Origin: Spirochaetaceae bacterium
GTDB taxonomy: Bacteria; Spirochaetota; Spirochaetia; DSM-27196; SLST01
Assembly (NCBI GenBank): GCA_007118855.1
Contig: SKQU01000140.1
Location: 17,289 to 81,288, forward strand
Length of the DNA stretch: 64,000 nt
Direction of reading: 5' to 3'
A program made the translations under genes and the position numbers. Below are positions 21,381 to 24,664 of the stretch, piece after piece. The notes below the pieces were generated by a model. The model did not search any database, was not told the DNA's origin, and saw only the letters and a program-made list of their open reading frames with translations. Each line of letters opens with the position of its first letter. Position 1 is the stretch's first letter.

Positions 21381-21405
21381 CAGGCGCGTTTCGAGCCCGT
21401 ATCTT
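21377..21405 (+). promoter_or_regulatory. candidate promoter of the 57-codon ORF (TTGACA-N17-TATCTT)
   Basis: TTGACA at 21377-21382 (overlapping the uxaE stop) and TATCTT at 21400-21405. Confidence 0.4.
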
Positions 21406-21434
21406 ACCGCAATCATCGCCCACGAGGAGGACAT

Positions 21435-21608
21435 ATGGCAGCAGGGAACCTATCAAAGAACGCTCGTCGTGAGGGCGCTCAGCAGCTCCAGAGCCGCTGG
21501 GGTGGCAAGATCGTCATGAAGTCGGTTTTTGAGAACGGCAAGATGAAGCATTTCGCAGTCTGCGACAAGACTGGGAATACCGGCCGCAAGCCCCGCGACC
21601 TGATGTAG
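21435..21608 (+). CDS. small basic hypothetical protein (57 aa), not in the ORF track (below its length cutoff)
   Basis: MAAGNLSKNARREGAQQLQSRWGGKIVMKSVFENGKMKHFAVCDKTGNTGRKPRDLM. A strong SD GAGGAGG sits 5-6 nt upstream, with its own promoter-like element and a GC-rich terminator. Codon third positions follow the genome bias. The overlapping 85-aa minus-strand ORF (21479-21736) is rejected. Confidence 0.6.
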   Translation: MAAGNLSKNARREGAQQLQSRWGGKIVMKSVFENGKMKHFAVCDKTGNTGRKPRDLM

Positions 21609-21615
21609 GTCAAGG

Positions 21616-21664
21616 CCCTCGCACGAGGCCCCCGGCCGGGGCGCCCCGTGGCGAGGGGTTTTTT
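21616..21664 (+). terminator. intrinsic terminator or attenuator between the small ORF and dcd
   Basis: ccctcgcacg (21616-21625) pairs with cgtgGcgaggg (21647-21657) around a further GC-rich inner helix, followed by T6 (21659-21664). The 3' arm contains the only SD-like element (GAGGGG, 21653-21658) for dcd ATG 21668. Confidence 0.65.
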
Positions 21665-21667
21665 GCC

Positions 21668-22189
21668 ATGATCGTTTCCGGACGTGAGATCGAGCGAAAT
21701 CTCGGCGGCAAGATCATCATTGATCCATACGACCACTCACGGCTGAACCCCAACTCGTACAACCTCAGCCTCCACGACCGGCTGCGCGTCTACCGGTCAA
21801 AGGCGCTCGACATGCGCGTGGAGAACTTCTCGGATGAGATCGCGATTCCCGACGACGGCCTGCTCCTCGAGCCACAGCGGCTCTACCTGGGCAGGACGGT
21901 CGAATACACGGAGACCGACGGCTACGTTCCCATGCTCGAGGGACGAAGCTCAGTCGGTCGACTTGGGCTGTTCGTGCACATCACCGCGGGATTCGGCGAC
22001 GTGGGTTTCAGGGGGTACTGGACGCTCGAGATCTTCTGTGTGCAGCCCATCCGCATCTACGCCGGCATCCAGATCTGTCAGATCTTCTACCACACGATCG
22101 AAGGCGCCTACGATCCGTACACGAGCGGGAAGTATCAGAACAACCGCGGTATCCAGCACAGCATGCTGTTCAAGGACTTCCAGCGGTAG
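21668..22189 (+). CDS. dcd: dCTP deaminase
   Basis: MIVSGREIERNL..GKIIIDPYD...LNPNSYNLSL...PMLEGRSSVGRLGLFVH..AGFGDVGF.GYWTLEI. Confidence 0.9.
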   Translation: MIVSGREIERNLGGKIIIDPYDHSRLNPNSYNLSLHDRLRVYRSKALDMRVENFSDEIAIPDDGLLLEPQRLYLGRTVEYTETDGYVPMLEGRSSVGRLGLFVHITAGFGDVGFRGYWTLEIFCVQPIRIYAGIQICQIFYHTIEGAYDPYTSGKYQNNRGIQHSMLFKDFQR

Positions 22190-22192
22190 TTC

Positions 22193-22221
22193 TTGCCTCG
22201 CCCGACCGTCTCGGGCATAAT
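22193..22221 (+). promoter_or_regulatory. candidate promoter of the antiporter operon (TTGCCT-N17-CATAAT)
   Basis: TTGCCT at 22193-22198 and CATAAT at 22216-22221. The ATG at 22234 lies only 12 nt after the -10 and has no SD. Confidence 0.3.
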
Positions 22222-22233
22222 CCCGCAGTACCC

Positions 22234-23481
22234 ATGTCCTTCCCGGCTTTGCTGAACGACGGCGGCTTCCTCGAGTTCCTGCGGGCCCATCCCCTCTTCG
22301 CGATCGGGCTCATGCTGATCGTCGGGTATCTTCTCGCGCGCGTCGCGGGCGCCGTTCGGCTGCCGGAGATCACCGGCTTCATCCTCGCCGGGCTGGCCAT
22401 GGGAGCCGGCGGACTGGCGATCCTCGGCAAGGGTGCGGCTGAGGACCTGGCGGTCATCACGGAGGTGGCGCTCGGTATCATCGCGCTGACGATCGGCGGC
22501 GAGCTGCGGCTTGCGAAGCTGCGACGTGTCTATCGTTCGGTCGGATGGATTACCGCCGGGCAATTCGTCCTGACCTTCTTCCTCGCCGGCGGTGCGCTCC
22601 TGCTGCTCTCGATTCCGCTTCCCTATGCGCTGCTGCTCGGCGCGATCGCCACGACGACCTCGCCGGCGGCCGTGATCGCGATCGTCCAGGCGACGCGGGC
22701 GCGTGGGCCCTTCGTCGACCACCTGAACGGAACGGTTGCCCTCGGCGATGCCTTGTCGATCGCCGTCTTCGGCGTCATCCTGGCCATGGTGCCCGCGATG
22801 CTCGGCGACGGCTCGGGAGCGTCTCTGCTGATCTGGCGGTCGGTGGCGGATCTCGCCGTGAGTCTGGCCCTCGGCGCGCTGATCGGCTTCGTGATATTTG
22901 CGACCACGCGACGCCAGTCGAATCCCGGCGAGGTCATGATTCTCACGCTCGGGTTTCTCTTTCTGTCCACGGCGCTGGCCGTCTCGCTGCGGTTCTCGCC
23001 GCTCTTGATGAATATGGCGGCCGGCGCGGCGATCGCGAATCTCAGCGCCGGGAATACCCGGATCTTCCGGACTCTCGAACCGCTGACCCCGCCGGTGTAT
23101 GCGCTCTTCTTCGTCATTGCCGGCACCAAGCTCAACCCGTCGCTCCTGTTCGGGGCCGAGGTGCTGGTGCTCGGGGCTGCGTTCGTGGCGGCGCGCTGGG
23201 TCGGGAAGTATTTCGGCTCGTATCTTGGCGCGCGAATCGGTGGAAGCGAGCCGGTTATCCGCAACTGGATTGGAGTCGGGTTATTCGCGCAGGCCGGGGT
23301 CGCGCTGGGGCTCGTCCTGCTCCTGCAGGCGGCGAGCGAGTTGGGACAGATACCCGGGCTCTCGCCCGACCTCGTGCGGACGGCGACCAATGTGGTGCTG
23401 CTGTCGATCTTCGTCAACGAGATATCCGGCCCGCCGATCGCCAGGCTCGCCGTGACCCGGGCCCTGGATCTGGAGGAGTGA
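22234..23481 (+). CDS. cation:proton antiporter (CPA2/Kef-type membrane domain only)
   Basis: 415 aa, polytopic and hydrophobic. LPEITGFILAGLAMG at the start of TM2 is typical of the Na_H_exchanger family. No KTN/RCK domain is present. Confidence 0.85.
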   Translation: MSFPALLNDGGFLEFLRAHPLFAIGLMLIVGYLLARVAGAVRLPEITGFILAGLAMGAGGLAILGKGAAEDLAVITEVALGIIALTIGGELRLAKLRRVYRSVGWITAGQFVLTFFLAGGALLLLSIPLPYALLLGAIATTTSPAAVIAIVQATRARGPFVDHLNGTVALGDALSIAVFGVILAMVPAMLGDGSGASLLIWRSVADLAVSLALGALIGFVIFATTRRQSNPGEVMILTLGFLFLSTALAVSLRFSPLLMNMAAGAAIANLSAGNTRIFRTLEPLTPPVYALFFVIAGTKLNPSLLFGAEVLVLGAAFVAARWVGKYFGSYLGARIGGSEPVIRNWIGVGLFAQAGVALGLVLLLQAASELGQIPGLSPDLVRTATNVVLLSIFVNEISGPPIARLAVTRALDLEE

Positions 23482-24317
23482 TGGAACTTGCAGACGCACT
23501 TGACCCGGTAGCCTGTGCCGTCGGGCTGAAAGCCCGAGACAAGGAGGAGGCGCTGCGCAAGCTCGCGGAGCTGGGGACCCGTTCGGACGCGCTCTCCGGG
23601 GTGGGAGTCGAGACGATCTACCAGGTGCTGAGCGATCGTGAGCGGCAGGGCTCGACCGGTTTCGGCAAGGAGGTCGCCCTTCCGCACGCCCGCGTGCCGG
23701 GCATGGATCGTTTCATCGTCTACTTCGCGGTCTTCCCCGGCGGGGTGCCCTTTGAAGCGCTGGACCGCAAGAAGGCGAAGGTCTTCTTCGTCATCCTCGG
23801 GCCGGCCGAGCAAGTCCAGCAGCACCTGCGGCTGCTCGCCGCCGTGTCGCGGATACTCGCGCACACGAATGCGAAACAGGAGTTGCTGCGCGTGCGCACC
23901 GTGGAGGCCGCCCTTGAGTCGATCCAGCGGCACGCGGGGCAGCCGAGTCTCGCGACATCGCAGGCCGGCGGTCCCGAGGGCACGATGAAGCTGCTGCTCG
24001 TGACCGTCTACTTTGAGCAGTTCATGTACGACATCCTCGAATCGCTGCTCGAGTTCGGCGTTGAGGGGGCGACGATCCTCGAGTCGAGCGGCATGAGCCG
24101 GTACATCTCGAACGTGCCGCTCTTTGCGGAGTTCATCGGCTTCATGAACGAGAGCAAGAACACCAGCCACACGATCCTCGCGATCGTCCCGGAGCGTCAC
24201 ATCGCCGCAATCGTCGAGCGGATCGAGGGGGTCACCGGTGACCTCGACAAGCGCGAAGGCGCGATCGTGCTCGCGCTCGATCTGAGCTTCTCAAAGGGCA
24301 CGATGAAGATGCTCTAA
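23481..24317 (+). CDS. PtsN-like PTS EIIA (type 2) domain fused to a C-terminal PII-like domain
   Basis: [24 protein letters not shown] and [27 protein letters not shown] align with E. coli PtsN blocks, including the phosphorylatable His. The last ~110 aa ([37 protein letters not shown]...[23 protein letters not shown]...GAIVLALDL) follow the beta-alpha-beta, T-loop, beta-alpha-beta pattern of GlnB. ATGA overlap with the antiporter. The 590-aa track ORF is real only from 23481 onward. Confidence 0.75.
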
Positions 24318-24664
24318 CCCGGGGCGCCGGGCGGTGGCGCCATGCGGTAGAAGCAGGAACGCTCCCCCGTGTGGCAGGCCGGGCCGGTCTGTTCGACGAT
24401 CAGCAGCACCGCGTCTTCGTCGCAGTCCACTCTGATCTCGAGCACGCGCTGTACATTCCCGGAGGTCTCACCCTTCTTCCAGAGACGGTCTCGGCTGCGC
24501 GAGTGGTAGTGGGCGTATCCGGTTGCCAGTGTCAGTTCCCACGCCTCGCGGTCCATCCACGCGAGCATCAGCACCTCACGCGTGCCGGCATCCTGAGCGA
24601 TCGCCGCCACGAGCGGTGAGCGGCCGAAGTCCGGCTCGACGGAGGTGCTCACGCGCTCACCCAT
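24314..24664 (-). CDS. hisI: phosphoribosyl-AMP cyclohydrolase
   Basis: [89 protein letters not shown]. Confidence 0.92.

Follow-up and report, generated by a model that had tools for sequence, protein, structure and literature searches.

A PtsN-like EIIA fused to a divergent PII-like domain is encoded with a membrane-only cation/proton antiporter in a member of the Spirochaetaceae

Organization of the locus

A 64,000-nucleotide (nt) stretch of DNA from a soda-lake Spirochaetaceae bacterium (assembly GCA_007118855.1, contig SKQU01000140.1, positions 17,289 to 81,288), called the window below, was analysed for two adjacent genes on its forward strand. The first encodes a 415-amino-acid (aa) cation/proton antiporter (CPA) made of a membrane domain only, and the second a 278-aa protein in which an enzyme IIA (EIIA) domain of the phosphotransferase system (PTS), similar to PtsN, is fused to a divergent PII-like domain. 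A preliminary description made from the sequence letters had drawn attention to this pair and proposed that a single polypeptide joins PTS phosphorylation state and a small-molecule ligand at an ion antiporter; the observation of the pair was confirmed here, and that interpretation was supported. Two plus-strand open reading frames (ORFs) make up the pair, 22234-23481 for the antiporter and 23481-24317 for the fusion gene (278 aa plus TAA), and the division of the latter product into an EIIA_2 part followed by a PII-like half agreed with what had been described. Coordinates refer to the whole window, and residue numbers to the 278-aa fusion or the 415-aa antiporter. The features of the locus were as follows.

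22193..22221, plus strand: promoter-like site TTGCCT-17-CATAAT, 9 of 12 consensus positions, a pattern match only; the antiporter ATG lies 12 nt farther on
22234..23481, plus strand: cation/proton antiporter, membrane domain only, NapA-like CPA fold (Pfam and family profile)
23472..23478, plus strand: Shine-Dalgarno-like GGAGGAG for the fusion gene, read from the sequence, inside the end of the antiporter ORF
23479..23483, plus strand: TGATG stop/start overlap (TGA 23479-23481, ATG 23481-23483)
23481..24317, plus strand: EIIA-PII-like fusion protein (ORF call, Pfam, homologue alignment)
23481..23945, plus strand: PtsN-like PTS EIIA_2 domain, residues 1-155 (Pfam PF00359, profile against PDB, Foldseek)
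23685..23687, plus strand: His69 codon CAC, predicted phospho-acceptor (alignment with PtsN His73; invariant in 50 of 50 homologues)
23940..23984, plus strand: variable linker, about residues 154-168 (predicted local distance difference test score, pLDDT, below 50; gapped, poorly conserved columns)
23985..24314, plus strand: divergent PII-like domain, residues 169-278 (AlphaFold2, Foldseek, sub-threshold Pfam P-II, hhalign)
24090..24161, plus strand: T-loop-like segment of 24 residues between beta2 and beta3, residues 204-227 (homologue conservation; low pLDDT)

The junction read GGAGGAG-TGATGG, in which the last base of the antiporter TGA is the first base of the fusion ATG. The overlap is 1 nt, rather than the ATGA given in the preliminary description, and position 22193, from which that description had started the feature, belongs to the promoter-like hexamer and not to the antiporter ORF. 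An alternative GTG start at 23478 would give a 4-nt overlap and a product of 279 aa; homologue alignments begin at the ATG at 23481 and not at this GTG. The gene dcd lies on the same strand with its 3' end 45 nt upstream, so that transcription could also read through from dcd into the antiporter gene, and the 3' end of the fusion gene is overlapped by convergent hisI. Contigs from a soda-lake sediment metatranscriptome, whose library came from the same sample as the DNA run that holds the locus, covered dcd, parts of the antiporter gene, the junction (23384-23637) and the fusion gene within window positions 21628-24158; positions 21400-21627 and 24250-24477 were outside their coverage.

The EIIA domain

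Residues 15-149 of the fusion matched PTS_EIIA_2 (PF00359) with 82.1 bits against a cut-off of 27 (E 5e-23, profile positions 11-142 of 144), and the same family was matched in 50 of 50 members of the fusion family. The 16-residue phospho-His context was present. The best solved relatives of the domain were PtsN structures; E. coli PtsN (1a6j) was found at E 4e-24 by profile and matched the domain model in Foldseek with a template modelling (TM) score of 0.92 on the target. In a phmmer alignment to 1a6j, the phosphorylated His73 of PtsN was matched by His69, and PtsN His120 by His115; R53, H69 and H115 were invariant in 50 of 50 homologues, bearing out the likeness to EIIA-Ntr (PtsN) that had been noticed in the letters. 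The score for the NCBIfam PtsN equivalog TIGR01419 was 69.5 bits against a cut-off of 138.7, and the gene was not in an rpoN-hpf-ptsN-rapZ-npr cluster, the proteobacterial hallmark; its neighbours were dcd, the antiporter gene and convergent hisI. Because of this sub-cut-off score and the lack of an rpoN cluster, the domain is, as judged by sequence, PtsN-like and not a PtsN orthologue.

Database annotations of the type 'PTS sugar transporter subunit IIA' and an NCBIfam fruA subfamily_domain match (E 6e-19, below its own cut-off) would fit an ordinary sugar-PTS EIIA of the fructose/mannitol class that serves a permease. We consider this extremely unlikely, since no PTS_EIIC (PF02378) was found in the genome (3.9 Mb, 95% complete), no EIIB or EIIC lay nearby, the partner gene was consistently an antiporter, and the solved structures closest to the domain were those of PtsN.

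The PII-like domain

AlphaFold2 (AF2) modelled the whole fusion with a pLDDT of 80, and residues 165-278 alone with a pLDDT of 79 and a predicted TM score of 0.70. In the AF2 model, residues 169-267 formed a beta-alpha-beta unit, a 24-residue low-confidence loop and a second beta-alpha-beta unit (in the numbering of the domain model: strand 5-12, helix 15-27, strand 34-39, loop, strand 64-73, helix 74-88, strand 97-103), which is the ferredoxin-like core of the PII superfamily with a long beta2-beta3 T-loop. The PII-like fold with a T-loop that had been read from the letters was thus recovered in the structure prediction. All top Foldseek matches in the PDB belonged to the PII superfamily; PstA/DarA (4wk1) came first (E 1.4e-5, TM score 0.77 on the target), and PEPE_1480, Chlamydomonas PII, TTHA0516, PotN, GlnZ, GlnK, SbtB and CPII were also among them. 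VIA-align, which is independent of Foldseek, returned DUF3240, CPII, SbtB, CutA1 and PII at Z scores of 9.3-10.9.

In sequence searches the window protein scored 13.4 bits (E 0.1) against Pfam P-II (PF00543), below the cut-off of 25, and sub-threshold P-II matches were present in 45 of 50 family members, with a best E of 1.5e-4. No PII-like Pfam family besides P-II was matched in the 50 members at E up to 1, and there was no Pfam DUF190 match among them. The domain-only profile aligned in register with 25 canonical PII proteins by hhalign (E 2e-4, probability 47%, 96 columns), and the same domain searched by profile against PDB sequences gave only marginal PII matches (E 0.5-1.2); the ESM Atlas gave no usable match. 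An 11-residue segment was set by hhalign against the PII B-loop T-G-x-x-G-D-G-K-I-F, and G253, G260 and A261 were invariant at the B-loop position. On sequence and modelled fold the domain is a divergent PII-like domain and not a PII of the GlnB/GlnK type, so that the earlier label "PII/GlnB-like" held for the fold, on the combined evidence of AF2, Foldseek and hhalign, but not for membership in canonical PII, given the Pfam score and the B-loop and arginine positions described below.

The T-loop-like segment was the most conserved stretch of the whole fusion (GM..Y.S..P.FA.F..FM). G204, M205, Y208, S210, P213, F215, A216, F218, F221 and M222 were invariant in the fused homologues, and across fused and split forms P213 remained invariant and F215 was retained in at least 90%. 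The low pLDDT of this segment in the model is as is usual for flexible loops.

EF-G domain V and the HisG C-terminal domain were matched by VIA-align at a similar Z of about 10-11, and because such generic ferredoxin-like matches were mixed in with the PII-like ones, the fold alone is no proof of PII ancestry. Ligand residues of canonical PII were also not conserved (the GDGK B-loop, R101/R103 and Q39, among them those for nucleotide and 2-oxoglutarate), so that ligand sensing is not implied by the sequence. These observations would suit a regulator whose C-terminal domain has a ferredoxin-like fold and acts as an adaptor for docking or oligomerisation, with no small-molecule sensing; the PTS would then be the sole input, and the domain would replace the CorC/RCK platform that PtsN uses on the E. 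coli antiporter YcgO. Such a role would also agree with the hydrophobic character of the conserved loop, which looks like an interface rather than a ligand site, and with the need of PtsN for a cytoplasmic domain on YcgO, a domain that the antiporter described here does not have. However, every top Foldseek match was a ligand-binding protein of the PII superfamily, the invariant glycines and alanine at the B-loop position suggest a conserved pocket, and PstA and SbtB still bind nucleotides with non-canonical residues. We therefore take an adaptor without sensing to be unlikely, though it deserves to be kept in mind, and continue with a PII-like domain that provides a second input.

The antiporter

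Residues 29-403 of the antiporter matched Pfam Na_H_Exchanger (PF00999, E 2e-32). No RCK/KTN (TrkA_N), CorC or Usp domain was found in it by Pfam scan, and none of the RCK/KTN type in the fusion either, showing that the transporter is a bare membrane domain, as had been described. All 120 homologues among the matches listed had the same build, with about 415 aa and PF00999 only. The family profile aligned over nearly its full length with Thermus NapA; over the N-terminal half of the antiporter, MjNhaP1 (CPA1) scored equally well as NapA. K325 was at the position of NapA K305, the lysine of transmembrane helix 10, and was invariant in the family, and G171-D172 of the window antiporter was at the position of NapA D156-D157, the acidic pair of transmembrane helix 5.

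Antiporter residues 171-172 (22744-22749) and 299 (23128-23130) co-varied perfectly and divided the family into two groups. D171-D172 went with E299 in 27 of 48 relatives, and G171-D172 with K299 in 18, including the window antiporter and its close soda-lake relatives; in the remaining 3 of the 48, position 171 was G or T and position 299 was K, Q or R. NapA D156, to which residue 171 corresponds in the alignment, is the residue linked to electrogenic transport, and ion stoichiometry or selectivity may not be the same in the two groups.

Conservation of the gene pair

The fusion family comprised at least 120 clusters at 90% identity, all of 272-279 aa and with full-length coverage, and relatives were encoded in 301 species-representative genomes; for this reason the ORF pair is far beyond chance, and the fusion has been kept in relatives without disruption of its frame. 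Database annotation of the family covers the EIIA part only. The closest relatives (90-91% identity) were from soda-lake sediment metagenome-assembled genomes (MAGs), and other carriers were Alkalispirochaeta, Marispirochaeta, Salinispira, a gutless-worm symbiont, Cloacimonadota, KSB1, Kiritimatiellales, Lentisphaeria and Chitinivibrionales. The domain-only profile retrieved 1226 clusters at 50% identity; among the best 150 of them, 51 were about 270 aa long, all with EIIA, and 79 were stand-alone proteins of at most 135 aa. No protein of at least 488 aa with a PII-like domain, as a possible triple fusion with an antiporter would be, was found, which is weak evidence. A Bacillota MAG protein of 422 aa (P0391 / P0397), annotated as PrmC methyltransferase, carried a PII-like domain at residues 302-412, possibly through a gene-call fusion or else as a genuine third architecture.

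Gene neighbours were counted in the best 80 species-representative loci, of which one was cut by a contig end. The antiporter gene was directly upstream on the same strand in 77 of the 79 testable loci, with a junction gap of at most 30 nt in most of the 77, and in 11 of 11 orthologous loci of the phylum sample. A paralogous group kept the pairing with the order reversed, the fusion gene preceding the antiporter gene. The overlap and the conserved adjacency together upheld the tight coupling of the fusion to an antiporter without a cytoplasmic domain.

The fusion might nevertheless regulate another target, such as Trk/Kdp K+ uptake, a metabolic enzyme or transcription, and be merely co-transcribed with the antiporter. 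E. coli PtsN has several targets (PMC13104625), and a fusion or an EIIA/PII-like pair without an adjacent antiporter was present at several low-GC spirochaete loci and at two Lentisphaeria loci (L137:1255-3322 and L149:907-3089), the latter with the full fusion next to an S49 peptidase and a GH4 glycosidase. However, the adjacency extends over several phyla with stop and start overlapping or nearly so, the pairing persists in the paralogous group despite its reversed order, split forms of the module sit on another class of antiporter, and the same genome encodes an antiporter-Usp-EIIA fusion. Another target is thus very unlikely in our estimation.

The split form was found in four other genera, where a PII-like gene (113-130 aa) is followed by an EIIA gene and then by MnhE, with which an Mrp-type antiporter operon begins. 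The split-form PII-like members scored 20-21 bits against Pfam P-II. The genome of the window itself holds such a set on contig C254 (L002:1-996, minus strand), where genes for a 113-aa PII-like protein and then a 155-aa EIIA lead by an ATGA overlap into MnhE, of which the contig edge leaves only the N-terminus. The remainder of an MnhE stands at the end of contig C405, but no exact overlap of sequence was found that would join the two contigs. EIIA and PII-like domain together make up the module, and antiporters belonging to two unrelated classes are its probable targets.

Two further arrangements were noted among split forms. In one related genus a SulP/STAS anion transporter (L024:1907-3328, minus strand) was directly upstream of the PII-like/EIIA/MnhE cluster. 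In low-GC members of the phylum (L035:1233-2106, L038:1462-2324, L039:1396-2254) an EIIA gene was followed by a 115-aa PII-like gene near ssb and an rpsF-like gene, with no antiporter within 1.5 kb of these pairs.

EIIA domains and antiporters in the genome

Seven EIIA_2 domains were found in the genome, in the following settings.

C419 (this window): antiporter, then EIIA-PII-like fusion
C393, L158:1273-3314, minus strand: 148-aa EIIA_2 gene with a 4-nt overlap with the start of a 532-aa Na_H_Exchanger gene
C403:592-3102, L007:592-2508, minus strand: 836-aa Na_H_Exchanger-Usp-EIIA_2 single polypeptide
C350:8817-13695, L157:318-5196, minus strand: 166-aa EIIA_2 closing an Mrp operon (MnhE, MbhD-like, MnhB, Proton_antipo_M) and overlapping the last subunit gene
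C254: separate PII-like and EIIA genes at the head of an Mrp operon
C52, L006:1057-2772, plus strand: EIIA_2 fused to a DAC diadenylate cyclase, 571 aa
C173: orphan EIIA

All three Na_H_Exchanger genes of the genome were tied to an EIIA_2 domain and two Mrp operons to EIIA domains, and most EIIA outputs look directed at cation/proton antiport. The EIIA-DAC sequence suggests PTS control of the synthesis of cyclic di-AMP (c-di-AMP), a regulator of K+ and cation/proton transport, and a second diadenylate cyclase, a CdaA-like DAC, was on C192. A search for enzyme I (EI) and HPr, the relay genes, yielded one HPr, HprK and three EI-N-containing (EI-like) genes. With these present and no EIIC found, the PTS looks regulatory. 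HPr was found in 395 of 401 Spirochaetota genomes and is so nearly universal that its co-occurrence with the fusion does not discriminate.

Proposed function and significance

We hold it to be fairly probable that the 278-aa protein is a soluble two-input regulator which gates the antiporter encoded just upstream, and antiporter and fusion together probably link ion and pH balance with metabolic state; by family, the ions exchanged for protons would be monovalent cations. The PtsN-like EIIA would be phosphorylated reversibly on His69 by HPr/NPr, as its sequence and the analogy with PtsN suggest, and with a regulatory PTS as the donor it would report the phosphoenolpyruvate/pyruvate (carbon, energy) state. 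The PII-like domain would add a second function. Its invariant hydrophobic T-loop-like segment probably contacts the antiporter, by analogy with GlnK-AmtB and SbtB-SbtA, and the domain may bind a nucleotide-type ligand. Phosphorylation of His69, possibly together with the ligand, would decide whether the fusion binds the antiporter; if E. coli PtsN and YcgO are a guide, the unphosphorylated form would bind and inhibit it and phosphorylation would release it. Since the antiporter offers no RCK or CorC domain on which an EIIA could dock, the fused PII-like domain plausibly takes the adaptor role.

Several points weigh against a regulator of this kind, in addition to the generic fold matches, the missing ligand residues and the Lentisphaeria loci already described. 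Binding to the antiporter is proposed by analogy, and a complex prediction of antiporter and fusion scored 0.02, which gives no verdict and speaks neither for nor against binding. PII proteins form trimers and CPA antiporters form dimers, and the two might not match in subunit number if the fusion assembled as its PII relatives do. The T-loop motif VPLFA.F is common to the CPA2-linked and Mrp-linked forms, and the contact of the loop may accordingly be with EIIA or the membrane and not with one particular antiporter. The RNA-library contigs over both genes, one of them across the junction, are a weak hint in favour of co-expression of antiporter and fusion, though contigs from RNA libraries can contain DNA.

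A wider scheme can be drawn, in which a PTS-centred network governs cation/proton antiport. One HPr relay would serve the seven EIIA domains (on three CPA antiporters, two Mrp operons and a diadenylate cyclase), the PII-like domains would be receptors of c-di-AMP from the EIIA-controlled cyclase, and carbon/energy state and second messenger would be integrated on one polypeptide whose T-loop plugs the antiporter. Taken as a whole this scheme is speculative and rather improbable, and the binding of c-di-AMP by the PII-like domain is pure conjecture.

How membrane-only CPA2 antiporters are switched is largely obscure, because the familiar regulators act through RCK/KTN domains. The gating proposed for the two-input regulator would be a third way to switch an antiporter, uniting PtsN-type EIIA and PII folds on one polypeptide. 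Haloalkaline soda lakes, in which cytoplasmic pH is set by Na+/H+ antiport, are the source of the closest relatives, and in such a setting the module could account for the way in which alkaliphiles keep the cost of antiport in line with their energy supply. What has been found for PtsN and YcgO, a single proteobacterial case, would also be extended to a system that is widespread and present in several phyla. With two small genes and one histidine, the system is easy to test.

Comparison with known systems

In CPA2 antiporters gated through RCK/KTN domains (KefC/KefF, KhtTU, CpaA), a soluble cytoplasmic sensor controls a CPA2-type transporter, as is proposed here. However, the present pair has no RCK/KTN domain; its sensor is from a fold family unrelated to theirs and brings in the PTS as a further input.

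The best Foldseek match, PstA/DarA (PDB 4wk1, 4d3h), is a c-di-AMP receptor, and the genome of the window encodes two diadenylate cyclases, one of them fused to EIIA. In PstA the T-loop is short and the B-loop long, the reverse of the domain described here.

GlnK-AmtB and SbtB-SbtA share with our locus a protein of beta-alpha-beta, T-loop, beta-alpha-beta build encoded beside a transporter, with the long beta2-beta3 loop as the likely contact, and GlnK and SbtB are co-expressed with the transporter that they plug or gate. GlnK and SbtB differ in being free-standing trimers, each the counterpart of a trimeric transporter, that bind adenine nucleotides and, in the case of GlnK, 2-oxoglutarate as well. 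The domain here forms one chain with EIIA, does not have the canonical binding residues and carries an invariant loop of unusual hydrophobicity, and it would meet a CPA partner that is presumably a dimer.

The preliminary description had invoked the regulation of K+ transport by PtsN in E. coli; that precedent stands, and a closer one is the inhibition of YcgO. E. coli PtsN, when unphosphorylated, uses its His73 face to bind the CorC domain of YcgO, a CPA1 antiporter, and inhibits K+/H+ antiport; the H73E substitution in PtsN abolishes this binding (PMC11808508; bioRxiv 10.64898/2026.08.14.744764). PtsN-YcgO/CvrA and the present pair have in common that an EIIA of PtsN type, with the phospho-His at the same place, is linked to a Na_H_Exchanger-superfamily antiporter for monovalent cations and protons, and phosphorylation state would by analogy be expected to switch binding here. 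The differences are that YcgO is a CPA1 protein with its own RCK and CorC domains whereas the antiporter here is NapA-like and membrane-only, that the EIIA here is fused to a PII-like domain, and that ptsN and ycgO are unlinked whereas the genes here are translationally coupled.

No paper on an EIIA-PII-like fusion was found in the literature on PII-like proteins with EIIA, PtsN, antiporters, fusions, diadenylate cyclases and Treponema PtsN, and a 2026 review of PTS-Ntr (PMC13104625) does not mention PII, fusions or spirochaetes, in agreement with the earlier statement that no characterised example was at hand. Control of a CPA antiporter by PtsN, control of transporters by PII-like proteins and control of CPA2 antiporters by RCK domains are already known; what is new is that EIIA and a PII-like domain are fused, that this fusion is constantly paired with antiporters that carry no regulatory domain, and that a parallel split form is present on Mrp operons.

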